NCBI GenBank assembly: GCA_018304325.1
Contig: JAGVWM010000021.1
Coordinates: 1 to 47,866 of the forward strand
Reading direction: 5' to 3'
DNA from: Candidatus Pacearchaeota archaeon
GTDB taxonomy: Archaea > Nanobdellota > Nanobdellia > Pacearchaeales > GW2011-AR1
Length of the DNA stretch: 47,866 bases
A program made the translations under genes and the position numbers. Position 1 is the first letter of the stretch; each line of letters opens with the position of its first letter. This document shows, in pieces, positions 2,062-47,866 of this stretch. The notes below the pieces were generated by a model, which saw only the letters and a program-made list of their open reading frames with translations, was not told the origin of the DNA and searched no databases.

Positions 2062-5000
2062 TTATTCAGCAGCCTGATATGGTTTAACAACTGCTGAACA
2101 CTGATCTGGCTCATTACTCCATATATCTTTGCATTTTATGTATGAAATTGATTTTAAGTTCCATACAGTTTTATGAATTTTAGTATTTCCGAAATCCATA
2201 CTTGTGCCATTTGCAAATCTTCATCTGTTTCTATAACTAAATCTCCAAAGTCATAATAAATTCTTGTAATTCCGGGAGGAATTGTGTCTAATTCAAGATT
2301 AAAGTTAGTATTTCCATATGCAAGATTTCCAGCACTATCAATACATCTTACATCTATAGAATAATTTCCTATATTTAGCGATGTAAATGTCTGCTTGTGT
2401 TCATTTGAAAGAGTTTGTGCAAATGTGATATAAGGTTGTGTATTTATAGAATACTGGCACGCTGCTTCACCAGAACTAAAACCTCCGGTTGTACTGACTA
2501 TTAAATCTACTTGAGATGTTTCACTTCCTCTTGTTATTGTTCCAGATGGAGAAATACTACTTATTGTCAAATCAGTTGAAGTTTTTTTCAAAGTATATAC
2601 ATAACCTGCCCCAATATTTCTTTTAGTATCTTCCCCTAACCAAGGCTGATCTCTGCATTTAATATAAAATTTATTTTCATCTTCAGGTAAAGAAAGTCCA
2701 ACTGTGCAAGGATACCCAAGTAGAGTTGCATCATTTAAATTATTTTTACAATTCAATGTTTTAGTCATTTCAAAATATCCGACATCACTTGTATTATATT
2801 TACATTCTGCAGGTTCATTAATAAAAAATGTAGTTATCCATGAAGTTGTATTTTTAGCAACATAAGAATCTGATTTTGGTGCAGTTGCTAAAACAACAGG
2901 AGGAGTTAAATCAGGTCCTGGTTTTACGCAGAAATTTACTTCATATACCCCAGTATTTTCTAAACCATTCATATTCCTACATTTAACATAAAGGTTAATT
3001 TCTCCCGCTTTATCCAGTATTGAATCATAAGCTGTTTGATTATTTTTTATTATTTCACTTGCCTGAGAAAATTCTGCAGGATTATTTGTTTCACCTGCAA
3101 TAATGCTATCAACACTTGGGAAAAATGTTAGTGCAGTATGATTTTTACTTAATACTTCTCCTTCTAAGAAGTTTCCAGACATTTCTTCATATGTTTCTCC
3201 AGATTCTTCTGAATATCTGCAAGATGAAAGAACATTTGTATCAATCCCAATTGTTACTGGGGAAAATGGATTTACACACTCTCCGCTTGAAGTTCTAACT
3301 TCAAATCCATTATTACTTACACTTTGGTATTTATATCCCTCAGTTAAAATTTTTTCATCAGCGCTTAAAATAGGAGGACCATCTTCTCCCTGAATTGAAG
3401 TACACTTATCATAACCTGTTCCTTCATTAACTATTTTACAATTTGATCCTAGAGATTCACATCTATATTTGCTACATGGTTTCTGAGGATCATTATTACA
3501 GAAATCACAATTGCCTCCAGAAGGTTGTGTCCATGCTTTGCATTCAAATGTTATCTCTGTTTCTTCTTGCTTTCCACATCCTAATGCATACATAATTCCA
3601 ACAACAGCCAATGCTCCAATAGCTGCTAACCCTAAAGGAGATATTACAGTAAGGGTGCTTCCTCCAGCAAAGCCAACTCCAACTCCTCCAGTAGCAGCTC
3701 CTATTCCTCCACCAATACCTGCACCAACAGCAGCTCCTCCAACAGTTCCACCTAAATTTGAACCAGAAAACATATTTCCTAACTGATCATCATTAGCGCT
3801 AACCTTTCCAGCAGAAAACATATCTTCAATTCCAAAGTTTTGCAAAAGGTTCATTCCTTGCACATTATTATAAAATCCAGGATCAGCACTTCCAGTTATG
3901 CTTGTTAATCCAGAAGAAAATGCATTTATTGCATACATTTTTTCCAAACCCATAAGTCTTGGAGGTTCTTTTGCCTTGCCCCCTTCTTTTTTTATTGAGT
4001 AACCACCATCAGTTGTTTTTCCAGCAATATTTGTATAAGCTCCGCAATCTCCTAAAGTTCTGCAATAATTATTCATTTGCTGTGTGAACTGTATTTTTTC
4101 ACACTCGCAGTTTTTTACACATTCCCATCCACCAGGACATTTTTTTTCATAAACTACAACACATGTTTTTGTTCCTGCATCACAAATACTTTCACTTCCT
4201 CCACTTCCTAAATTTCCTACATCTCCTAGTGCCCCTCCTCCTAAATTTCCCCCTAATTCACTTCCCACAGCACTTGTTATAGCTCCACCTTGTCCAAATT
4301 CATTTCCGGGAGGATATTGTGGAACACAGGCAGTAAAATAAAAATCCTCATCTATATAAACTACTTTAGGAGTGCAGTCAGGGTTTTGAGAGCATGTAGC
4401 AATATTTCTTCCAGAACAATCTTCCCACATATTAGGTCTGCAAAAAGCTCCACTTTGATCAGGATTTTGAGAAAGACGCTACTACCTCCACCTAATCCAC
4501 CAGTTAATTCTCCTCCCAAATCACCACCAAAAATATCTCCAATTGCATTTCCAGTTAATCCACCAAGCAACCCATTTCCACTTAAAATTTCACTTCCAAA
4601 TCCACCTGTTTCCACACAAATTTCTTTTCTATAATCAGCACATGGTTCTGTTTGTATTTCTCCATTTACACACAACTCTCTAAAATGCCTGCTTCCAACA
4701 ACATCATTTCCATTTCCAACTTTACCATCATAAACACACCAAGATTCTCCGTTTGTCCTGATTTTTAATTTATCTCTGCAATTTAGATCTCTACAAACAT
4801 AATCTCCATCAGTTTTCTTTTTGTCTTGTCCAGACTTATAAGCAGCACATAAACTTCCTTCACCATAATCACAATTCCCACAACCTTGGGATCTTATATT
4901 ATTACTTCCCACTCCACAAGAATTTTCTTTGCTCAAAATTTTTCCATCATTAAAAGATCTATCTTTATTAGAGTCATAAATATTCTCTCTATTTCCACAA

Positions 5001-5778: not shown

Positions 5779-6606
5779 TTATTTAGGTGTAGGTTGTACA
5801 CAATTTCTCAAAGCAAATTGCATTATCTTTCCAGTTTTAGTATCAGTTACAGTGTAAACTTTTTCATCATCTCCTGTTTGATCTTTGGCTATACTAACCC
5901 AAGTATTTGTTCTCATAATTAATGTGTAATCACTATTACAATATATTGCTTCTTGGTAAATTATTTTTTGGATTATTATTGCCATGTCATACAAAGGAGT
6001 AAAAGTTGATATTTCTACTGAACTGAATTTTCTTTGCTCATCAGCTTTTTTTATGTTTATATCTGCATCAATACTAACTTTAGCTTTATCAGGAACTAAA
6101 CTTATTGCAAACCCCTTATAATTAACACTTACTTGATAAGCTTTAGATTCATAATCAGCTTTCATCTGGTTCACACAATTAGATACTTTATTATTCATAT
6201 AAAGATGAATTTCATTTTCTAAATGTTCTATCCAAACAGCTTCCGAAGGATAACATTTTTCCCCAGTATTTCCAGTATAGCATAAATAAGGTAAATCTCG
6301 CCCTTTGTAACTTTTTGTCTTTTGAGGAAGTTGTATATATCCTGAGTTTGTAATAATTTTATCTACAGATTCTTCTAAACTACTTTGGATACAACTTTCC
6401 AAAAAATCTTTAGGATTATCAGAGCTGGTAGGTTTTATAGACAAATCATTTTTCTTGAATAATACAAAAAGGAGTATTATTGCAACAACTATAATTATTG
6501 CTAATATTACAAATATTGTCACTTGCGAGCGCTTTGACTTTACTAAATCATTATTAGAACTGAAAGTAAAAACGCTAGTTGCTTTCTTATTTTGTTTTTT
6601 TAGCAT
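5779..6606 (-). CDS. Pilin-like protein with class III signal peptide (paralogue of 1046..1939)
   Basis: MLKKQNKKATSVFTFSSNNDLVKSKRSQVTIFVILAIIIVVAIILLFVLF, with the same architecture and conserved Cys positions as 1046..1939. Confidence 0.6.
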   Translation of the reverse strand: MLKKQNKKATSVFTFSSNNDLVKSKRSQVTIFVILAIIIVVAIILLFVLFKKNDLSIKPTSSDNPKDFLESCIQSSLEESVDKIITNSGYIQLPQKTKSYKGRDLPYLCYTGNTGEKCYPSEAVWIEHLENEIHLYMNNKVSNCVNQMKADYESKAYQVSVNYKGFAISLVPDKAKVSIDADINIKKADEQRKFSSVEISTFTPLYDMAIIIQKIIYQEAIYCNSDYTLIMRTNTWVSIAKDQTGDDEKVYTVTDTKTGKIMQFALRNCVQPTPK

Positions 6607-14954: not shown

Positions 14955-16671
14955 TTATTCACATTTATGATCTACACAAGTATTTTTTCCAATTTTAATA
15001 CAATCTTCATCAAATTTACAATTTCCTAAGAAACATTTTCGAGGCTTGTCATATACAGGTTCACCATTAATCATTTGAATATCACAGATATACCCCTTTA
15101 GACAGTCATTATTTCTCCTACATTCATCACATTTCCCAAAAAAGTCATTACAGTATGGTCGTTCTGATGGACAGTCTTCATTTTTAATGCATTCCACACA
15201 TTTCGATCGTGCGGGCAATTTTTGGCATTTGTTTAATCCAGGAAGAACTCCAGAATCACTTAAAAATTTACATTCATTATCAGTTAAACAGACCGAACAT
15301 AGAGCTCCACCCATCCCTCCGGTAACACATACTATCCCTCCATTTTTGTCGAAATTACAGTCGGGATTTCTATATCCTTCAGATGTTTTAGTATTTTTTT
15401 TAGGAGTGCATTCTGAACAAATATTATCAACACAATATTTGTATGTGCCAGAATCTTTACATTCGGAATTTTTTCCAGAGAAGCATGTTGGACCATCTGG
15501 GTACATAGCTACACATTTTTCATTAATACACTCTTTGCCTTCTGGACAGTCACTACTATAAATACATTCAGATATCTCTTCTTCTTCAGCCACACAAGAA
15601 GCTGGAAAATTTGGTTCTTGCTTACATATCTCATTTTTATCACACTCAATATTATTCAAGTAGAAATTTTGATCTTTCTTGCATACTATTTGAAAATCTT
15701 CTTCAGGAGTATCTTCATTGCATTTCTTTGTATTTTTATTACATTTTTTTAATTCATCGTCTTTTGAAATGCAACTTCCCTGACTGCATATTTCACCATT
15801 TTCACAATTCTTTTTTTCCCATCCAAATCCGTTGCTTCTGCATATTTTAAAATCTGTTTTATCCTCAGGTTTAGCTTTAAAATCTGCTTTATTCTCAGTT
15901 TTAGCTATGCATTTAGTTGCTCCAGGAGTGCATCTTATACCTCTTTCATTTCCTCCAGCAACACAAACATTTTCATAATTGCAAATTAATCCTTCGTTAC
16001 AACCTCCTCCGCACTCTCCTCCACAACCATCATTTCCGCATTCTGTTCCAAGGCAGTTCAGCCATGCATTGCATGAGCTTCCTGTACACACACCTGCATT
16101 GCATGTTTCTCCTGTTGAGCACGATCCACAAGTAACATATCCTCCACAACCATCTAACCAAGTACCACATTCATATCCATAAGATGGACATGTTTGCGGA
16201 ACACAATTTCCACCATCATCACTTACACAATCTCCATAATCATTGCAAGTCTCTCCATTATTGCAGTCGTTATTTTCATAACACTCTCCACAATATCCAT
16301 TTTTGCAGTATGGCTCCCTATGTCTTGAGTCATCCCGGCAAAATTCATTAGTTCCATCATGCCTATTATTATCATCTAGTTCTCCATCATCTGAAAGTTC
16401 CCCATCATCTGAATTAAGGGAAACATCACATTCCACGCCCTGAACTACATTACCAGTTATTCCAATAACATTACCTGATATAACTTCTCCAGTTAAACTG
16501 GATTTATTTTTAATTAATAATCCGATAATAATTAATGCAAGAACTAAAATAAAGTTAAACTGGATTTATTTTTAATTAATAATCCGATAATAATTAATGC
16601 AAGAACTAAAATAATAACACAGATAGCAATTAATAATCTTTTATTAAAATTAGTTTTATTTTTGTTCACCA
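14955..16671 (-). pseudogene. Cys-rich surface protein whose signal-anchor is disconnected by a 62-bp tandem duplication
   Basis: The ATG at 16671 gives MVNKNKTNFNKRLLIAICVIILVLALIIIGLLIKNKSSLT, then a frameshift and stop at 16510. Removing one 62-bp copy joins it in frame to ...GEVISGNVIGITGNVVQGVECDVSLNSDDGE (ORF 14955..16436). It is a paralogue of 24677..26359. Confidence 0.65.
16491..16614. repeat. Perfect 62-bp tandem duplication (2 copies)
   Basis: GTTAAACTGGATTTATTTTTAATTAATAATCCGATAATAATTAATGCAAGAACTAAAATAA(A) occurs at 16491-16552 and again at 16553-16614. Confidence 0.85.
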
Positions 16672-39248: not shown

Positions 39249-40061
39249 TTATAAACTATCTAAAGGAGATTTAATATTCTGTAACTGGAAATTAGAAACA
39301 TGGGTATATATTTGTGTTGTTTCTAGCTTATTATGCCCTAAAAGTTTTTGGATAATTCTAATATCAACCCCATTTTCAAGCAGATGTGTTGCAAAACTAT
39401 GCCTTAATGTGTGGCAGCTTGCTTTTTTATTAATTGCAGATTTTTTAAGTGCACTTTCAAAAATTTTCTGAATAGTTTTTATTGTAATTTTTCCATTTCT
39501 ACCTTCAAATACATATTTACTATTATTTAGGGAAATATAATTTTTTAGTTCATTAGACAAACTTTCAGGGAGATTTACATATCTGTCTTTTTTACCTTTA
39601 GCTTCTTTGATTAATGCAATTTTCCTCTCAAAATTAACATCCTGTACCTTCAAATTTTGCAGTTCACTTACTCTTAAACCTAGTCCATATATTGTTTGAA
39701 GAATTAATCTATGTTTGGGATTATCTAAAGAATAAATTATTTTTTTTACTTCTTCTTTTGATAAAACAGAAGGTAGCCTTTTTTCTTTAGTTGGCCTTTT
39801 AATATCAAGCTTACTATTATAAATTCCAAAAGCAAATTTTAACGCACTAATTACAACATTTAAAGATATATTTGTCTGCCCTTTTTCATTTAAATAAGCC
39901 AAATATTTTTTCACATCTTCCTCATTTGAGAAAGATAAATCTTTATTGCTGAATTTAACAAAGTTTTCAATTATATTGGTATAAGATTTCTTAGTTTTAG
40001 GGCTAAAACCTCTTGCACTCATTTCTATTTTAAGTTTTTCAATACCATTTAGTTCACCCAT
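39249..40061 (-). CDS. Tyrosine recombinase, XerA/XerC/D-like (no IntI-type insertion seen)
   Basis: LGLRVSELQNLKVQDV...KGKKDRYVNLP...CHTLRHSFATHLLENGVDIRIIQKLLGHNKLETTQIYTHV. The start is taken at MGELNGIEK (40061), which has TTTATATACTTTATATGG upstream. The track's TTG start at 40214 reads through GC-rich non-coding DNA. Confidence 0.75.
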   Translation of the reverse strand: MGELNGIEKLKIEMSARGFSPKTKKSYTNIIENFVKFSNKDLSFSNEEDVKKYLAYLNEKGQTNISLNVVISALKFAFGIYNSKLDIKRPTKEKRLPSVLSKEEVKKIIYSLDNPKHRLILQTIYGLGLRVSELQNLKVQDVNFERKIALIKEAKGKKDRYVNLPESLSNELKNYISLNNSKYVFEGRNGKITIKTIQKIFESALKKSAINKKASCHTLRHSFATHLLENGVDIRIIQKLLGHNKLETTQIYTHVSNFQLQNIKSPLDSL

Positions 40062-40326
40062 ACAGGGAAATAACCATATAAAGTATATAAAATTATCTTT
40101 ATATGGAGTTGCTTGGCTTCGCCCAAATTGAGATTTCGCCCTTCTGGTTACTTGCTTTCCCCTTTTTTTCCGACATGGTGTTTTTGTCCCTGCTCCCTGC
40201 CCTTTAGGTTGCAAGTAATTCTCAGCCTTTTGATTTCTCGCTCAGTTTAACCTCACAAAAAGAAAACAGAAAAGAAATGCTTCGCACTTCTCATAACAAA
40301 GGTTAAACTAAATTGCTGAAACAGAC

Positions 40327-40713
40327 TTAATCTTCTCTCCAAACTTTTCTACAATGTTGGTCATAAATTACCCGTGCCGATTTGTATAATCTTTTTATTC
40401 CTTCAGAGTCAAATTCGCCTTTGGTAAATCTACGATAATGTCTTTGTATTGTTCTTTGTGAGACATTATCCAAATAAACTCCAAGCAGTTCTCTTTCCCC
40501 ATCATACATCGAGCTTTTGCTTTCCATACCAAAGGCTTTTTGTAAGAGAACATATTTCATCTCATCTAAGGTCGGATGTTCTTTTCTCATAATCTCTTCT
40601 AATCTTTGCCTTTCTTCTTCATACATTTTTAACATCCTCCCGATTGGACTATTTTCATGTTCTCTTCTTAACTCTTCAGTCATTTTTTCTATTGAACTTT
40701 TCCTTTTTGCCAT
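40327..40713 (-). CDS. Small basic protein with HTH-like segment (128 aa)
   Basis: LGVYLDNVSQRTIQRHYRRF is HTH-like. The ORF is bracketed by short nested inverted repeats. Confidence 0.45.
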   Translation of the reverse strand: MAKRKSSIEKMTEELRREHENSPIGRMLKMYEEERQRLEEIMRKEHPTLDEMKYVLLQKAFGMESKSSMYDGERELLGVYLDNVSQRTIQRHYRRFTKGEFDSEGIKRLYKSARVIYDQHCRKVWRED

Positions 40714-40979
40714 ATATTTTTGCGTTATGACCTGTATTTAAACTTTTGTTTGGGGTTTCAGCAACTACGCTACGAAATCGGCTGAGAACGAAATCTCAAC
40801 TCTCGGGGCACTTCGTGTGCCAGCCCGAGCCTTCCGCTTCGCTTCAGGTCAAGCAACAGCAGATTAAGAGGTAATTTCTTTTTGCTCCGCAAATCGCTTT
40901 CGTAGCGACCAGAAATTAGCCCAAATTTTTCAGTCATTTCTATTTTCAAATTAGCTGAAAAACTTCTTTTACCCCCAAT

Positions 40980-41150
40980 GTTAGTTTCAATTGCAAATTC
41001 TCTATACTTTGAAATAAAAACTGAAAATTAAGAGAGGACACTTCAATTCCCCAGACCACCCGCCCCTAAATTGTAGAAATTGTTGTAAATAAAAAGTGAG
41101 CCGCCTTGGTGCTTCGCACATTTTGTCTTGACTTCGTCAAGCAGAAAAAC
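40980..41150 (+). repeat. Long direct repeat, copy 1 (~171 bp)
   Basis: GTTAGTTTCAATTGCAAATTCTCTATAC...GGTGCTTCGCACATT has 7 mismatches in 143 nt against 47276-47418 by hand. It is followed by hairpin CTTGAC-TTC-GTCAAG and CAGAAAAAC. Confidence 0.8.
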
Positions 41151-41186: not shown

Positions 41187-42686
41187 ATGAGCAAAACATC
41201 TAAAAAACAAATAGTTGTTGGTTATCATCCTATTGCTAATCGCATTGGAGAAAAAATTTTGAATTCTGGCGGAAACGCTTTTGACGCTTTTGTAGCAACA
41301 ACTGCCGCCGAATGTGTATTGGGTGAAGGGGTAACAAGTCTTGCAGGTCCTTTAGGGGCTTTGCTTTATGGTTCAAAATCAAAAAAGTGTTATTATCTTG
41401 ATGCTGGTTTTAACACGCCTCTGAATATTGGTAAAAAAGATAAAATTGGTGCAAGAGTTCCCGGAGCACCGGCAGGTCTTGAAGCTATTTCTAAAAAATT
41501 TGGAAAATTGCCTTTTCACAAAGTTCTTGAGCCGGCAATCCAACTTGCACGTAATGGTTTTAAGTTAAATAATTTGTATGCAGATTTAATTTTCTTCAAC
41601 AAAGAAAAATTGAAAAAAAGCCAATACGGGAAACAAAAATTTTTTCAAAATAATAAACCTCTTGCAAAAGGAAAGATTTTAAAGTTTCCAGAAGTTGCAG
41701 TTGTTCTTGAATCTCTTGCTAAAAAAGGCTCAAAATATATGTATGAAGGGGAATGGGCTAAAAAAGTTGTTAAAGAAGTGCAAAAGAAAGGCGGAATTCT
41801 TACTATGAAAGATTTTTCTCAATATGAAATAAAATGGAGAAATCCAATCAAAATAAATTATAGAGATTATAAAATATATTCTACATCTGGAAGAACATTT
41901 GGAGGACTAGCGGTTTGTTTAGCATTAAAAGCTTTGGAGAATTTAGATATTTCTTCCTTTAAGAATCATTATTCAAATGATGCCACGGCTCTTGAAATTT
42001 TAATAAGGATTAACAATGAAGCAGAAAAAGTCGTGAATAATTTTAAACCTAAAGAACTCGATAATAATTTCCTTATCCAAAAATTAATTAATAAGAAAGC
42101 GCATGAAATATTGGAAAAAGTGCAAAAGGAAATAAAAATAAATAAATCTGTTCATGGAAACCATAGTTATCAAGTTTCTATTATAGATAAAGAAGGAAAT
42201 GCAATCACAGGAACAAATTCTATTCAATCTCTTCCTTGGGGAGAAGGGATTTTTGTTGAAGGAATTCCCTTAACTGCAAGCGGAATAGTAACTCCTTTTA
42301 GTACAAATTCCGGAGAAAGAGAATTATCTGCTTTATCAATGCACATGGGAATGAAGAGTTCAAAAGTTGCTTTCATAAGCGGAGCATTTGGTTCTTCATT
42401 AATTCCTGCCGAATTTCAGTTTCTAGTTAATATCATAGATTATAAACTTTCTGCGAAAAAAGCAACAACTCTTCCTAGATTTGGGACAACAGCATGGGAA
42501 ATGAAAAATAAAAAATATATACAAAAAGGAATTTGGCTAGATACGCGAATTAAAAAAAGCATAATCAATACCTTAAATAAACGAGGTTTAAAATTTGAAC
42601 AAGAAGGTTGGGTTGATACAGGATTCGGTTCCATTATACTTGTTAAACCTGATGGTTCTGTTGAGGGTTCAATTGCACCTGTTTAA
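41187..42686 (+). CDS. ggt: Gamma-glutamyltransferase-family protein (no signal peptide)
   Basis: HPIANRIGEKILNSGGNAFDAFVATTAAECV...; processing-site region GNHSYQVSIIDKEGNAITGTNSI. Confidence 0.7.
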   Translation: MSKTSKKQIVVGYHPIANRIGEKILNSGGNAFDAFVATTAAECVLGEGVTSLAGPLGALLYGSKSKKCYYLDAGFNTPLNIGKKDKIGARVPGAPAGLEAISKKFGKLPFHKVLEPAIQLARNGFKLNNLYADLIFFNKEKLKKSQYGKQKFFQNNKPLAKGKILKFPEVAVVLESLAKKGSKYMYEGEWAKKVVKEVQKKGGILTMKDFSQYEIKWRNPIKINYRDYKIYSTSGRTFGGLAVCLALKALENLDISSFKNHYSNDATALEILIRINNEAEKVVNNFKPKELDNNFLIQKLINKKAHEILEKVQKEIKINKSVHGNHSYQVSIIDKEGNAITGTNSIQSLPWGEGIFVEGIPLTASGIVTPFSTNSGERELSALSMHMGMKSSKVAFISGAFGSSLIPAEFQFLVNIIDYKLSAKKATTLPRFGTTAWEMKNKKYIQKGIWLDTRIKKSIINTLNKRGLKFEQEGWVDTGFGSIILVKPDGSVEGSIAPV

Positions 42687-42695
42687 ATCTTTTAC

Positions 42696-42725
42696 CTTCT
42701 TTTTTAGAAAAAAAGAAGCAAAAAA
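42696..42725. terminator. T/A-rich palindrome CTTCTTTTTTAGAAAAAAAGAAG + CAAAAAA after ggt
   Basis: Lies 10 nt after the ggt stop, between convergent genes. Related copies are at 43471-43500 and 46914-46940. Confidence 0.4.
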
Positions 42726-42742
42726 TTAAGTGCACTTTTCCC

Positions 42743-43147
42743 TTATTTGATCAACAGCAATGCTTCTTCAGGGCTAACAATCTTTATTCCTTGATATTCT
42801 TTTAATTTTAATAGATGTTTATCTTGACTTATAATTAAATCTGCATTTCCGCTTATTCCAGCTTCAAGAAATTTATTATCGTCAGGATCTTCCTTTATGA
42901 CATTAAGTTTTATTTTTGGATTAATAATAACAGAACTTTCGATGATTAAATTTCTCCATTCTTCAATCATTTCATCAGACATTTGAATTTTGAAATTTCT
43001 TAATGTTTCTGCAAATTCTTTTAAAATATCCATAGAACTGACTAACTCAAATTTCTTATTTTTCCATTTGTCTATTATTTGGGAACAAAAATTTCCCTCC
43101 CAGAAAATTCCAGAGACAAAAACATTAGTATCAATGATTGCTCTCAT
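42743..43147 (-). CDS. PIN-domain toxin
   Basis: AIIDTNVFVSG...; DPDDNKFLEAGISGNADLIISQDKHL. Confidence 0.65.
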   Translation of the reverse strand: MRAIIDTNVFVSGIFWEGNFCSQIIDKWKNKKFELVSSMDILKEFAETLRNFKIQMSDEMIEEWRNLIIESSVIINPKIKLNVIKEDPDDNKFLEAGISGNADLIISQDKHLLKLKEYQGIKIVSPEEALLLIK

Positions 43148-43404
43148 TTTTTCCGAGTCTGTTTGATTGCATTCTCTACATCAGGCTCTTTTATTCCTTT
43201 CTTTTTAGCAAAATCTCTTGTTTTTTTGAGTAGTTTATCTATTCCGCTAAAAGAAGGCATTTCCAACTTTTTCAATACAATTGTACTATCTTCCCCAATA
43301 ACAACAAACTTTTCTCCCTCGTGAATTTTCATTTTATCTCTTAAACTCTGGGGAATTACAACTTGCCCTCTTGAACTTACGCTTGTTATTTCAACTTTTT
43401 CCAT
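43144..43404 (-). CDS. AbrB/SpoVT-type antitoxin
   Basis: VSSRGQVVIPQSLRDKMKIHEGEKFVVIGEDSTIVLKK, with a 4-nt overlap with the PIN gene. Confidence 0.65.
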   Translation of the reverse strand: MEKVEITSVSSRGQVVIPQSLRDKMKIHEGEKFVVIGEDSTIVLKKLEMPSFSGIDKLLKKTRDFAKKKGIKEPDVENAIKQTRKK

Positions 43405-43470
43405 TTTTACCTCCTGATAAGTTTATATGATTGGTAAGATTATCTTATTTATAAATCTTTCGTTTAGAGT

Positions 43471-43500
43471 CTTCTTTCCCTAAAAAAAGAAACAAAAAAA
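43471..43500. repeat. Degenerate copy of the T/A-rich palindrome
   Basis: CTTCTTTCCCTAAAAAAAGAAACAAAAAAA. Together with 42696-42725 it brackets the PIN/AbrB module as imperfect direct repeats. Confidence 0.5.
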
Positions 43501-43732
43501 GCGCGCGCTTCCGTCCCCCACCCTAAAATAGTGCAGGTTCTCAAACTCTCTCCGCTTCGCTCCGAGCCACGACTTGCAGGCTCTCACTTTGTTCTAGGCG
43601 TTGAACAGACATTAAAAGGAAAATCCTTGCAGGATTTTGCCCAAATTTCTTGCTTATTGATAAGCTTTTAGTTAGGCAAGAAACATCTTTTAATGTCATA
43701 TGTTCTATTCAATAATTTCAGGGGCTAACGAA

Positions 43733-43774
43733 AGGGGCAATTTTAACTAAACGAAACGACGGGGGGAATTCCGT
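43733..43774 (+). repeat. Inverted repeat, left arm, flanking the AsnB-fusion gene
   Basis: AGGGGCAATTTT-(16 nt)-GGGGGGAATTCCGT. The outer 12 nt and inner 14 nt are exact reverse complements of 46944-46985. Confidence 0.75.
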
Positions 43775-43831
43775 AACGACGACTTTAAAAATAGCAATGT
43801 TTATAATTAAATTAGATAATATTATATTAAG

Positions 43832-46800
43832 ATGTGCGGAATAACTGCTATATTTGGAAATTATAAAGAAAAAGAGGATTTCGTAAAGATTTCTCTAGAT
43901 AAAATTCAACATAGAGGAACGAGCATATTTGAATATAAAATATTTAGTAATGGCGCTCTTGGTGCAAATAGGTTGCCTATTGTTGATAGAGAACACGGAC
44001 AACAACCTCTATCAAATGAAGATAATACTATTTTTGCAGTTCAGAATGGGGAGATATTTAATTATATTTCAATAAAAGAAATGCTTCAAAAGAAAGGTCA
44101 TAAATTTAAGACTAATTGTGATACTGAAGTTCTTGCTCATCTCTATGAAGAGTTTGGAGAAAAACTAATTGATTATATTGATTCAGAGATGTTTTCTTTT
44201 GTAATTTATGACTCAAAAAAAGATAAATTCTTTGTCGCTCGAGATAGATTTGGAGTAAAACCCTTATTTTATGCCATTGATAAAAACAATTTCTATTTTG
44301 GTTCTGAATTAAAACAGCTAGTTCAATTTGACTTTATCAAAGAAGTGAAAATCTTTCCAAAAGGGCATTATATGGCTGATGGGAAACTAAAAAAGTATTA
44401 CGATTTAAAGTATGATAATTCTATTAAAAACTTAGAGCATGCCAAAACTAAATTAACGAATTTAATCGTAGAAGCAGTTAAAAAAAGAGTAGATACGGAT
44501 TTACCTATTGCTGTTTTGCTAAGCGGTGGAGTGGACAGCAGTTTAATTATGGAAATAGCCACAAGATTCCATAAAGATGTTACTGCTTTTATATTGGGTA
44601 TGCCTGGTTCTTCTGATTATGAAGCCGCAGTTAAGTTATGTAAAGATAATAAATACAAACATAAAATAGTTTACCCTAATGTTGATTATGCCAAAGAATT
44701 TGAGAAATTGATTTATCATTTAGAATTGTATGAGGCACAAGTAATCAGACAATCTTTTGCGTTGGATATTCTCGCAAAAGAAGTAGTAAGAACAGGTTAT
44801 AGAATTGCTTTAGTTGGTGAAGCATCAGACGAAATATTTGGAGGATATAATGAGTTTTCTCGTTTGAATAATGAAAATATCAATAAAGGATGTTTCATGA
44901 TTACTGATGATTTAGAAAAAAGTCATAATGTTAGAGTGGATAGAATGAGTATGAAACATGCTCTAGAAACAAGAGCACCTTTCTTTGATACAAAAGTTGT
45001 TGAATTTGCTATGAAAATTGATGGAAAACTTAAAGTAAAAAGAGAAAATCATCAAATAACAACAAAATATATTTTAAGAAAAGTTGCTGAACAATTTTTG
45101 CCTGATTATATAACTTGGAGGTACAAGGTTCCTTTTGCAAATGGTGCTGGGATGAATGTTGGATATAATTTTAGGTCTCAAGATGGAGATGTTGCAAAAG
45201 AAATATTATCCTATAAAAAGGCAAGTTTAGACAAAAAAACTAAAGAAAAGTATGGGTTTCTAACTGATGAAGAATTAGTTTATTTTGATGCATACAAAAC
45301 TTTCAAATTCGACAAACTTTTCAATAACTGGCAGAGAATTATCACAAAGGAAACACTTAGCAAAATAGATGAAAACACTAATGAAATCAGAATTCTTGTT
45401 GCAGAATTTGGGAGACTTCCTCTTTATTTCCCAGTTTATCTTGCTTCTAGAGTAAAAATATACAAAAAACATAAGTTAGATGTAGATTTTATTACTTCTG
45501 GCGGTGATGATTTAACTTATAATTCCTTATTATCTGGTTCTGCTCAGATAGGAATAGCAGACCCAATTTTTACATTTACAGAGAATTTTTCCACTAAGGG
45601 GAAGATTATCGGACAATTGGTTGGAAAAGTGCCTATTGTTGCTGTAACTTTGAATCCTTCAATAAAAGTAACTCAAATAAATGATTTAGAAAAATATAGG
45701 ATTGGAACATTTCAAGAATATTCAACAACTAATACTTTAATGAAAGAACTGCTTCCAACTAAAGAATTAATCCCAATAAAGTATTCTGAAATTACTCAGG
45801 CATTAAAAGATAGAAAAATTGACATAGGAATTATGACTCCTGATCTGGCGTATGACTTAATAGGGAAAGGCGGCCATATTATATACAAATTTGAAGAGAA
45901 ATTTGGAGATTATCTATTTACAGGCGTAACAATATGTGATAATCTAGACCCGAGATTTCATCCCGCCATTAAATCATTCTTAGCATCTATTAAAGAATCT
46001 GTAAATCTTATAAAAAAGAATAAGAAGGAAGCATTTGCCCAGTTTAAAATGGAATTCCCAGAAATGCTTAATCATGAAGAAATGTTTGATTATCTGATTC
46101 ATTTTTGGAATAAAAAACTTACTATATCTGAAAGTGGAATAAAGAGAGCAAAACATACGTGGCAAAAAGTATATCCTTGGTTAATAAAATCTAATATGCC
46201 TCAATTCATAAAACCACGACCAGAAGATGAAATCTTAAGAATCCTAAGCGATAGAGATATATCTAGAGATATTCCTTATATGGAAGATAAAATGGCAGAT
46301 ATTATATGCCAGAATATAAAAGAGAAAACTCCAATATCTCTAGTTGGATTTTGGGGTGCTTCTGACAAGCATAAATTCGATGAAAAAGATAATAATGCAA
46401 TAAACAAGCTTAAGAGCCTAAATTCTGAAATTAAGAATTTGCATAAGCCAGGAATTGAATTTACTTTTATTTTAGCAGATGAACACGCAAGATTAAATAA
46501 ATGTAATAAAGAAGCATATAGCCTATATTTAAAAGAAATTGAAAAAAAACTTAAAGAAGCGGGATTCAAAACTATTTTCTTAAGCGAAATCTGGAAGAAA
46601 TATAAAATCTCTGACGAGTTAATCTACGCAAAACTAAAGAAATTAAAAGATTCTGAATGGAGAGACGTAATAAATCATAAAGAATTAGAAAAGTCATCAA
46701 GAAACAGGGAATTAAAAGATTATAAGCAAGAAGCGAAACGATACTTTATTTGCAGAAAGATGGAATCAGAAGCTCTGCTCAAAGAATTTCCAAATATGAT

Positions 46801-46912
46801 ATTTAACACATATGGAGAAGATATACACCAAAATCTATTCCCTGATTGCCCAATCATTTACTTTTGGGTAACTAACCGAGGATATACGATTTCACCTTGG
46901 TTGGATAAATGA
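43832..46912 (+). CDS. Three-part fusion: asparagine synthetase (glutamine-hydrolysing) + periplasmic-binding-protein-like (NMT1/SsuA-type) domain + unknown C-terminal domain
   Basis: The N-terminal MCGI (Ntn Cys2), SGGVDSS PP-loop and EASDEIFGGY match AsnB. The middle, RILVAEFGRLPLYFPVYLASRVKIYKKHKLDVDFITSGG...GIADP, looks like a type 2 PBP. The last ~230 aa (LVGFWGASDK...ILADEHARLN...TISPWL) are unassigned. Confidence 0.7.
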   Translation: MCGITAIFGNYKEKEDFVKISLDKIQHRGTSIFEYKIFSNGALGANRLPIVDREHGQQPLSNEDNTIFAVQNGEIFNYISIKEMLQKKGHKFKTNCDTEVLAHLYEEFGEKLIDYIDSEMFSFVIYDSKKDKFFVARDRFGVKPLFYAIDKNNFYFGSELKQLVQFDFIKEVKIFPKGHYMADGKLKKYYDLKYDNSIKNLEHAKTKLTNLIVEAVKKRVDTDLPIAVLLSGGVDSSLIMEIATRFHKDVTAFILGMPGSSDYEAAVKLCKDNKYKHKIVYPNVDYAKEFEKLIYHLELYEAQVIRQSFALDILAKEVVRTGYRIALVGEASDEIFGGYNEFSRLNNENINKGCFMITDDLEKSHNVRVDRMSMKHALETRAPFFDTKVVEFAMKIDGKLKVKRENHQITTKYILRKVAEQFLPDYITWRYKVPFANGAGMNVGYNFRSQDGDVAKEILSYKKASLDKKTKEKYGFLTDEELVYFDAYKTFKFDKLFNNWQRIITKETLSKIDENTNEIRILVAEFGRLPLYFPVYLASRVKIYKKHKLDVDFITSGGDDLTYNSLLSGSAQIGIADPIFTFTENFSTKGKIIGQLVGKVPIVAVTLNPSIKVTQINDLEKYRIGTFQEYSTTNTLMKELLPTKELIPIKYSEITQALKDRKIDIGIMTPDLAYDLIGKGGHIIYKFEEKFGDYLFTGVTICDNLDPRFHPAIKSFLASIKESVNLIKKNKKEAFAQFKMEFPEMLNHEEMFDYLIHFWNKKLTISESGIKRAKHTWQKVYPWLIKSNMPQFIKPRPEDEILRILSDRDISRDIPYMEDKMADIICQNIKEKTPISLVGFWGASDKHKFDEKDNNAINKLKSLNSEIKNLHKPGIEFTFILADEHARLNKCNKEAYSLYLKEIEKKLKEAGFKTIFLSEIWKKYKISDELIYAKLKKLKDSEWRDVINHKELEKSSRNRELKDYKQEAKRYFICRKMESEALLKEFPNMIFNTYGEDIHQNLFPDCPIIYFWVTNRGYTISPWLDK

Positions 46913-46913
46913 T

Positions 46914-46940
46914 CTTCTTTTTGTAAAAAGAAGCAAAAAC
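46914..46940. terminator. T/A-rich palindrome CTTCTTTTTGTAAAAAGAAG + CAAAAAC after the AsnB fusion
   Basis: Starts 2 nt after the stop codon and belongs to the same family as 42696-42725. Confidence 0.4.
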
Positions 46941-46943
46941 ACG

Positions 46944-46985
46944 ACGGAATTCCCCCCTACGAAACGACGACTGAAAATTGCCCCT
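46944..46985 (-). repeat. Inverted repeat, right arm
   Basis: ACGGAATTCCCCCC-(16 nt)-AAAATTGCCCCT. Confidence 0.75.
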
Positions 46986-47275
46986 TGATACTTATTCTTG
47001 ATGGCTCACTGTGTTCGCTTGATTGAATACGCCCCTGAAATTACTTTGATTTTTTGCTCTTCGAGCATCGTTGCACTAAAATTCAAGTCCTAACGGACGA
47101 GTTTAACAGGGCTTAACCGACTACGAAACCTTGCAGGTTTCTCCGTCCAAATTTTGCCCCATCTCTGAAAATTTCTCCAGCTCTGTTCTGATTTTCCAGC
47201 TCTGAACTGTGGTTCGAGGGAAAATCCTCACGAGGTCGAAATTTTCGAGGGGTCAAAACTTCGTATATCCCTGAC

Positions 47276-47447
47276 GTTAGTTTCAATTGCAAATTCTCTA
47301 TACTTTAAAATAAAATCCAAAAATTAAGAGAGGGCACTTCAATTCCCCCGACCACCCGCCCCTAAATTGTAGAAATTGTTGTAAATAAAAGGTGAGCCGC
47401 CTTGGTGCTTCGCACATTTACTCTCGCTTTCAGCGAGGCAGAAAAAC
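47276..47447 (+). repeat. Long direct repeat, copy 2 (~172 bp)
   Basis: Same core as 40980-41122. It is followed by a different-sequence hairpin CTCGC-TTTCA-GCGAG and CAGAAAAAC. Confidence 0.8.
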
Positions 47448-47532
47448 TTCTTTTATCCGACCAACGAAAAACTCACGAAATTAAAATTTCGTCCAACAAA
47501 GGATAAAAGGCTTCGCCCAAATTTTTTTGATA

Positions 47533-47866
47533 TTATTGGGGAGTTTTCTTAATATCCTTTTTCATTTCCTTTAATAAATCTAATAATGAATCTCCTAAAT
47601 CATTACGATAAAATGTTTCTTCTTTAAGTCCTGTTTTTGTATGAGAATAAATTTTCCATCCAACCCCTTTATTAGAATCAATAAAAGAATCTGCCAATCC
47701 ATCATATAGAGTTTTATCCTTTCCTGCTTTTTGGAATTTGGCTAAAGGAACTCTGACTTTTGTAAAGGTAGTTAAAACTTCATTAAGTTTTAGTTTGGTA
47801 TTTTCACTCAATGAATTTCTTTTTTTATCAATATCGTTTAGAAATCTAATTAATTCATAAGCTCCT
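47533..47866 (-). CDS. Hypothetical protein, C-terminal part (frame open to window edge)
   Basis: The track starts at a TTG. The same frame continues upstream (AYELIRFLNDIDKKRNSLSENTK...) to the end of the window. Confidence 0.45.
   Translation of the reverse strand, partial: GAYELIRFLNDIDKKRNSLSENTKLKLNEVLTTFTKVRVPLAKFQKAGKDKTLYDGLADSFIDSNKGVGWKIYSHTKTGLKEETFYRNDLGDSLLDLLKEMKKDIKKTPQ

Follow-up and report, generated by a model that had tools for sequence, protein, structure and literature searches.

This study concerns a 47,866-nucleotide stretch of DNA (contig JAGVWM010000021.1 of a Candidatus Pacearchaeota archaeon), which we call the window, and in particular a gene near its right end that lies between inverted repeats. 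The gene (43832-46912; coordinates are window positions and refer to the plus strand unless stated otherwise) encodes a protein of 1026 aa in which an AsnB-type amidotransferase is joined to an NMT1/solute-binding-like domain and a C-terminal domain (Pfam). It is the cargo of what appears to be one cassette (43703-47276) of an integron-type array, and a XerA-type tyrosine recombinase, our candidate for the enzyme of the array, is encoded divergently from it (39249-40061, minus strand). The gene is preceded by an A/T-rich leader (43775-43831) with the TATA-like boxes TTTAAAAA and TTTATAAT, which is conserved in the window and in three other copies (L015, L025 and L028) and is probably the promoter of the cargo, placed inside the arms described below. 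The draft genome encodes a TBP and is thus archaeal. To the right of the cargo lies an AT-rich perfect hairpin, CTTCTTTTT-GT-AAAAAGAAG (46914-46940, hereafter PAL), followed by CAAAAAC. PAL recurs at this position as a framework element and is likely a bidirectional oligo-T terminator. A Xer/dif core in the arms or in PAL was considered and rejected: the center of PAL varies from 2 to 5 nt, and a terminator hairpin is therefore more likely than such a core.

Three nested, exact inverted segments of 13, 13 and 14 nt surround the AsnB-fusion gene in the window; we call them H1, H2 and H3 from the outside inwards. H3 (GGGGGGAATTCCGT, 43761-43774) has its exact reverse complement H3' (ACGGAATTCCCCCC) at 46944-46957, and H2 (AAGGGGCAATTTT, 43732-43744) has its own, H2' (AAAATTGCCCCTT), at 46974-46986. 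These are the inner and outer arms that an earlier note on this DNA had pointed out as part of a 42-nt inverted repeat, and both are there as described. The note was also right that the middle 16 nt are not inverted and carry the same core, ACGAAACGACG, in one orientation on both sides (43751-43761 and 46959-46969). What it overlooked is the outermost pair, formed by H1 (TAATTTCAGGGGC, 43713-43725) and its exact complement H1' (GCCCCTGAAATTA, 47031-47043), and beyond it a 4-bp pair, TCAA (43709-43712) with TTGA (47046-47049), which raises the number of nested complementary segments to four. TCAA and H1 together span 43709-43725, and H1' together with a conserved motif, CTTTGATTTTTTGC, spans 47031-47057. 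H1 and H2 are 6 nt apart on the left side, and 44 nt separate H2' from H1' on the right. In the arrays of L029, L025, L059, L060, L063 and L064, both H1-H2 spacers hold a C-rich motif in the same sense (CCGACCACCCGCCCC on the left, TTCCCGCCGTCC on the right).

For the inner arm, 0.02 occurrences are expected by chance in the window at up to 2 mismatches, and for the direct core 0.03 at up to 1 mismatch, against 2 observed in each case; the 12-nt outer arm is weak taken alone, with at least 2 hits in 9/100 shuffles. Inverted 11-mers no more than 6 kb apart are not enriched over the 663-kb draft genome as a whole (416 inverted vs 716 direct), and we rejected on this ground a genome-wide habit of bracketing genes. 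Among the matches listed for such inverted 11-mer pairs in the draft, the AsnB bracket is the only nested trio of exact pairs of at least 13 nt. The H arms have neither a second copy nor a solo copy anywhere in the draft and were not found by exact-pattern search in 60 relatives, which speaks against a dispersed repeat.

The core shared by the two spacers (left, AACTAAACGAAACGAC, 43745-43760; right, TACGAAACGACGACTG, 46958-46973, the latter kept in other cassettes with the same bracket) is not a recombination core. In an antiparallel alignment of the spacers anchored on H3, each CG step stands opposite another in register and pairs with it, and A runs face A runs. The mixed inverted and direct appearance arises because a quasi-palindrome (CG-AAA-CG) is kept mismatched at its A positions, and the core is an unpaired A/C-rich spacer with pairing in-register CG steps. 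In this bracket type the core, ACGAAACGA(C)GA, lies on the top strand in both H3-adjacent spacers in several genomes, and the left spacer, made of AAC(G/T)A-like units, ranges from 16 to 32 nt across copies.

The AsnB cassette lies between two attC-like sites. The one before it (43600-43708) consists of R'' GTTGAAC (43600-43606), L'' GACATTAAAAG (43608-43618), L' CTTTTAATGTC (43687-43697) and R' GTTCTAT (43702-43708); the one closing it (attC_b, 47101-47282) has R'' GTTTAAC (47101-47107), an imperfect L box and R' GTTAGTT (47276-47282), and the next cassette, which carries restriction-modification genes, begins at 47277. The arms start 0-4 nt after R' GTTCTAT and stop about 55 nt before the cassette's own attC-like site. 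Both sites fold as hairpins with R and L boxes paired, and they stand in the same orientation less than 4 kb apart, as expected of an integron with its two or more sites. In L029, the same locus from another assembly, which extends 6.4 kb past the window, the array continues with attC-like sites at 15009-15092 and 16454-16554, all on one strand. Altogether, our scan of four genomes and metagenome contigs retrieved 17 such sites of 84-205 nt, all in array orientation. Their common form is R'' RYYYAAC, one A, and an L box of 8-12 bp that is perfectly paired and shows 2-4 pair types at each position, followed by a variable part with small hairpins, the complement of the L box, a 3-4-nt spacer (GAT or ATAT) and R' GTT(A/C)xxx. 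This pattern agrees with the integron consensus (R'' RYYYAAC, R' GTTRRRY, paired L boxes) and matches published archaeal attCs such as GTATAAC...GTTATAC and GCCTAAC...GTTAGGC (PMC9668308 Data S9). A 52-aa minus-strand open reading frame (43541-43699) in the region of the first site has no family hit and is probably spurious, not a gene.

That the cassette boundary lies at GTT is shown by variants from the population. L076 agrees with the window up to 43700/01, where another cassette (GTTAAGTGAAAT...) takes over; L025, L040 and L043 show differences before GTTAGTT and none beyond it; L028 has a window-type left end behind another site. L083 diverges at 47108, within the site that closes the AsnB cassette. 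The cassettes of L088, L093 and L097 begin with GTTCTAT, and each has as its own R'' the exactly complementary ATAGAAC. The variant junctions and these three cassettes show the two hallmarks of integron cassettes, a boundary at G|TT of R' and first bases complementary to the cassette's own R''.

Bracketing is general in these arrays: cognate nested complementary segments were found just inside the boundaries in 10/10 cassettes examined. It is also nearly restricted to cognate halves, since in a 10 x 10 comparison of left with right halves the cognate pairs share 11-46 nt of exact complement and nearly all combinations of unrelated bracket types give a score of 0. In L029, the restriction-modification cassette is bracketed by H1 GAGAGGGCACTTC / AAAGTGTCCTCTT, H2 TAGAAATTGTTGT / ACAACAATTTCTA and H3 GGTGAGCCGCC / GGCGACTCAC, a VTT cassette by AAATTTTGGCGCGC / GCGTGCCAAAATTT and a cassette for a 133-aa protein by TTCAGAATTCGGGC / GCCCGAATTCTGAA. 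A 165-bp direct repeat of the window (40959-41123 and 47255-47419), dispersed in relatives, corresponds to the left brackets of two cassettes, the second being that of the restriction-modification cassette (47276-47545). In other species (G003 and G022), cargos of 1.8, 6.2 and 5.3 kb lie within brackets that are either the same or different. A helix-turn-helix (HTH) gene beside the recombinase has three bracket pairs as well. Its open reading frame (40327-40713, within the region 40128-40799) is preceded by a 64-nt site (40245-40308) with the perfectly complementary GTTTAACCT / AGGTTAAAC, and the pairs lie at 40313/40755, 40219/40780 and 40128/40789, the last two spanning the 64-nt site.

The elements follow one another in a common order. 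On the left, the GTT start is followed by TCAA, H1, a C-rich spacer, H2, an A/C-rich spacer and H3, and then by the cargo in either orientation; on the right come the AT hairpin PAL with CAAAAA, H3', H2', H1', CTTTGATTTTTTGC, a small hairpin and GTTGCACTAAAA. Scanning one genome per species for the exact pattern, we found the H2-spacer-H3 arm in 11 further contigs of metagenome-assembled genomes (MAGs), labelled Woesearchaeota, Nanoarchaeota and some doubtful bins; H1 or its complement lies close to the matched arm in most of them, and seven of the 11 hold both bracket halves in the same order. At least five, and probably six, other cargos of 1.4-5.7 kb are flanked by the same three arms. None of them is AsnB; as named by eye, they include restriction-modification-like enzymes, a 424-aa secreted protein, and a putative regulator with an ABC-transporter-like operon. 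Because the same three arms flank different cargos, the bracket belongs to a reusable framework, or chassis, and not to the gene. The suggestion of the earlier note that the gene sits in a mobilisable unit is thus supported, as the AsnB cassette is found behind different upstream sites and its arms surround other cargos in other genomes.

Many cassette-only contigs stop at H3' or at CTTTGATTTTTTGC because the assembly graph forks wherever a cargo adjoins the shared chassis: L037 and L045-48 end in H3', L033 diverges inside it, L034 ends at 47057 and L036 diverges there. Cassette-only contigs of 3.3-3.6 kb were considered as circular cassettes and rejected, being linear fragments that break at the join of chassis and cargo. 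One unit of the window is built differently. A GGT gene and a PIN/AbrB toxin-antitoxin pair form one unit (41187-43510) with a type-A left bracket, two PAL copies (42696-42725 and 43471-43500) and a foreign right end, GCGCGCGC with a C-rich spacer; a deletion seems to have fused two cassettes here.

Comparison with close AsnB alleles from metagenome contigs revealed conservation by compensation. In the L015 allele, whose protein is 94% identical, the inner pair is GGGGGGAGTTCCGA / TCGGAACTCCCCCC, which amounts to two double, pair-preserving changes (A-T to G-C and T-A to A-T), and the framework positions of H2 and H1 are occupied by the unrelated complementary pairs GAGTTTGTCGCTT/AAGCGACAAACTC and CCGAATGTCAGC/GCTGACATTCGG. 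The L025 allele (89%) carries GGGGGAGTTCCG and the pairs GAGTTTGTCGC / GTGACAAACTC, GAGAGGGCACTTC / GAAGTGCCCTCTC and TTGCAAATT / AATTTGCAA. An 8-bp palindrome in the inner arm, GGAATTCC, is confined to the window allele, with L015 and L025 carrying GGAGTTCC. The AsnB cargo therefore occurs with three different brackets. Because the alleles show compensatory changes together with wholesale replacement of helices, it is pairing at fixed framework positions, not sequence, that is conserved. The arms are not present in more distant AsnB homologues (81% and 74%).

The AsnB-fusion gene itself is accessory: it was not found in genomes of the same genus. A search of genome contigs for loci related to the protein gave none. 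The fusion of AsnB with a solute-binding-like domain forms a large family of about 1028 aa across bacteria of the candidate phyla radiation (CPR; Falkowbacteria, Moranbacteria, Pacebacteria) and DPANN archaea, a distribution that suggests cross-domain transfer. At L028 1-700, window-type left arms, the leader and the first 54 AsnB codons are followed in frame by a cysteine-rich (CxxCxxCxxxCP) ferredoxin-like open reading frame, apparently a gene-level recombinant that uses the 5' end of the cassette.

The arrays also show a strand bias. Among hairpins with a stem of at least 4 bp in arrays oriented by their attC-like sites (L029, L025, L059, L060, L063 and L064), the top strand carries 32 TTC triloops, 10 TGC and 0 GAA, compared with 17 TTC and 12 GAA in the rest of the genome. 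Read on the bottom strand, the array triloops are GAA and GCA loops. GNA triloops form unusually stable DNA mini-hairpins, and the loop of attC-aadA7 is of this class. The bias suggests that it is the bottom strand that folds, in single-stranded form, and fits the recombination of integrons through a folded bottom strand. Spacers of both halves have more C than G on the top strand (75/34 and 72/41). A construct of the circle junction, in which the right end is joined to the left end, gives -82.4 kcal/mol as single-stranded DNA (z = -8.0), and its predicted fold is one hairpin comprising H3, H2, H1 and the attC-like stem. Minimal sites with R'' and R' only 3-4 nt apart also occur (GTATAAC-AAGG-GTTATGT at L029 15866-15890; AACTAAC-ATC-ATTAGTT at L015 ~3535-3560), and in such cassettes nearly all of the fold energy would come from the bracket.

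The recombinase beside the array scores 238.7 bits against the XerA model NF040815 (cut-off 220) and 215 bits against the integron-integrase model TIGR02249, below the cut-off of 265. The latter match comes in two stretches that skip about 50 profile positions (about 186-236), and the best PDB matches are XerA of P. abyssi (4A8E) and then IntI4 (2A3V, again in two stretches); by both the TIGR02249 profile and the 2A3V alignment the additional domain specific to IntI is absent. Divergent XerA-type recombinases without this domain adjoin arrays at four loci of three genomes, namely in the window, twice in G003, and in G047 (those outside the window at L059 9031-9795, L061 2577-3347 and L063 6802-7603). 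A second paralogue of the window genome, 44% identical, lies among ordinary genes (contig C28, 13116-13985). The array-side XerA-type enzymes may be the missing integrase of archaeal attC arrays.

Taken together, our best reading is that the arms form one long hairpin, split in two, that belongs to an integron-type cassette chassis, and that they are not a private switch of the AsnB gene. The AsnB fusion would be the cargo of one array cassette whose split arms refold with the attC-like hairpin when the cassette is free or single-stranded; we give this a probability of roughly 0.55. Integration at G|TT would linearize the free cassette inside the long hairpin, leaving the 3' strand of the outer stem (TCAA, H1, H2, H3) as the left end of the cassette and keeping the 5' strand (H3', H2', H1', TTGA) on the right, before the attC-like site. 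In an excised, circular or single-stranded cassette the right and left halves would be neighbors around that site and would zip up, extending the hairpin by about 45 bp interrupted by unpaired A/C-rich (on the bottom strand, G/T-rich) loops. In the array the halves are 1.4-6 kb apart, and the fold of the site would thus depend on the state of the cassette. Pairing on single-stranded bottom-strand DNA might stabilize or present the attC fold of the free cassette; alternatively, pairing of the arms might bring the two flanking sites together for excision. The XerA-type enzyme would act as the recombinase. A wider and more tentative proposal, to which we assign clearly less than even odds, is that these cassettes represent an undescribed integron-like class of DPANN archaea, with a hairpin several-fold longer than a canonical attC, split by integration, and run by XerA without an IntI domain.

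Several points weigh against the refolding hairpin. No circular or empty-site junction was observed among the assembled contigs, and the reading assumes that a cassette of 2-6 kb becomes single-stranded or circular so that its halves can meet. The GGT and toxin-antitoxin unit has a left bracket only, and pairing is therefore not needed for a cassette to persist. The attC-like sites come from our own pattern scan, which requires AAC, GTT and an 8-bp box, rather than from HattCI or IntegronFinder; over the whole genome the strict pattern is not enriched over shuffles (16 hits vs 4-17), in a scan where the window holds only a small part of the array and attC_b is an imperfect site. R'' of attC_b (GTTTAAC) is not the complement of the cassette's own R', and several variant junctions lie elsewhere (in H3', after CTTTGATTTTTTGC, or at R''). 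The recombinase scores above the XerA equivalog cut-off and is without the IntI-specific domain, and it may therefore be the housekeeping enzyme. Mismatches within helices are all transitions, 7 of them G-U-compatible on the top strand and 3 of the A-C type, which does not favor the bottom strand and is not significant either way.

It is conceivable that the complementarity has no present function, and that the bracket is the relic of a long framework hairpin at whose tip cargos were swapped, its halves being complementary through descent from one hairpin or homogenized on meeting in a circle. One bracket does carry many cargos and the AsnB cargo three brackets; the left arms of L088 have decayed by 6 mismatches (1 + 3 + 2), the GGT and toxin-antitoxin unit lacks a right bracket, and L033 lacks an H2 partner. 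Nevertheless we consider a relic unlikely, given the two precise compensatory changes in H3, the replacement of helices at fixed framework positions, arms that are exact in most copies across distant MAGs, and spacers that stay unpaired and show one and the same strand bias in the two halves.

The earlier note had proposed an invertible unit. In such a reading the gene is flipped between the inner arms as a switch, whether by the adjacent tyrosine recombinase or by repeat-mediated recombination. Inverted repeats next to such a recombinase would suit this, and one relative does carry a fixed inversion: in L088 (1256-4003) the interior is inverted between the inner arms, with the PAL side at the left H3 and the GTCGTTTGTT side at the right H3'. 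Yet 0 of about 45 assembled contigs with the cassette or its alleles, from more than 15 samples, are inverted, whereas an inverton would show both orientations in the population. PAL lies to the right of the cargo in 8/9 cassettes of the AsnB bracket type and in 3/3 of the other type, whatever the orientation of the gene, and the arms differ between cassette types without a shared recognition motif. The putative promoter and PAL lie inside the arms, and flipping would therefore switch nothing. Repeat-mediated inversion can thus occur but looks occasional, as in L088, and a working switch is highly improbable.

Equally improbable is a structure at the RNA level, in which a top-strand transcript of the array would form a long-range stem for processing, circularization or insulation of the cassette RNA. 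The pairing as such is strand-neutral, mismatches compatible with G-U favor the top strand by 7 to 3, and it is on this strand that the unpaired spacers are rich in A and C. Against this, the arms lie outside the putative promoter-to-PAL transcription unit and the bracket keeps its polarity around minus-strand cargos such as that of the restriction-modification cassette, on which grounds pairing between the 5' and 3' ends of an mRNA was rejected; the loops are UUC/UGC on the top strand but of the stable GNA type on the bottom DNA strand. A known RNA family and a bulge-helix-bulge processing stem were also rejected, as nothing reached or came near an Rfam gathering score and the bulge-helix-bulge geometry is not present.

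Least probable of all is that the arms are terminal inverted repeats (TIRs), whether of a foldback element or of a non-autonomous transposon, or that two copies of a small element, facing each other, form a composite unit, the last being an option named in the earlier note: the subterminal arms are indeed multipartite and unequally spaced (6 vs 44 nt), and the same ends flank variable cargo in many genomes, but there is no target-site duplication outside the arms (TCAA and TTGA, which flank them, complement each other and are not a direct repeat), the genome has neither a second nor a solo copy of the arms, no transposase is encoded in the cargo, the two spacers are not inversions of each other, the helices are mutually unrelated and replaced between types yet still complementary, and the unit always lies between attC-like sites with a GTT junction.

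Integrons in Archaea were first reported in 2022, as integrons and as clusters of attC sites lacking integrases (CALINs), most arrays being without IntI, and attC clusters without integrase are listed in Pacearchaeales MAGs (Ghaly et al. 2022; PMC9668308). The split-hairpin cassettes resemble integron cassettes and their attCs (PMC9668308) in that arrays of accessory and defence genes are separated by imperfect hairpins with R'' RYYYAAC and R' GTTRRRY. They also share conservation of structure over sequence, a single site orientation, the G|TT junction with first bases complementary to the cassette's own R'', a tyrosine recombinase divergent to the array, and toxin-antitoxin and restriction-modification cargos. 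Unlike in integrons, complementarity here runs about 45 bp past the R box, in three or four helices parted by the whole cargo; the cassettes are large (1.4-6 kb) and often multigene, with apparent promoters of their own, a framework hairpin and a reusable chassis, and the recombinase is of the XerA type without the IntI-specific domain. To our knowledge, a split complementary bracket just inside the recombination sites has not been described for integrons.

Other known systems share fewer of these traits. The pdif modules of Acinetobacter, which are flanked by XerC/D sites, likewise hold toxin-antitoxin and accessory modules between inverted sites, with a Xer-family recombinase implicated; pdif sites are conserved 28-bp cores, whereas the arms here are cassette-type-specific and nested and do not have the format of two 11-bp inverted arms around a 6-bp spacer. 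Invertons and shufflons have inverted repeats next to a tyrosine recombinase, and the fixed inversion in L088 recalls them, but here there is no orientation polymorphism among contigs and no shared repeat consensus, and the putative promoter lies inside the unit. Foldback and long-TIR cargo elements, and units bracketed by miniature inverted-repeat transposable elements (MITEs), have similarly long, multipartite inverted termini around variable cargo; they differ in that here no target duplication, transposase family or solo ends are seen, and the spacers are strand-biased, not inverted.

Our results suggest that cassettes of the Pacearchaeota/Woesearchaeota type carry a reusable chassis whose ends are complementary for about 45 bp past the R box. 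If this is true, the fold of a recombination site depends on whether its cassette is free or integrated. The XerA-type recombinase found at the position of an integron integrase, in four loci of three genomes, is a second, testable addition; if true, a XerA-run class would explain why most archaeal attC arrays have no recognizable integrase. The chassis seems to move restriction-modification and other accessory genes between distant DPANN lineages, and it carries a gene family common with CPR bacteria. It would therefore be a concrete vehicle of gene flow in these reduced genomes.

Elsewhere in the draft genome, contig C24 (6.1 kb) has a 33-nt inverted repeat close to each of its ends (66-98 and 6033-6065), which could reflect a small element with TIRs or an assembly effect.

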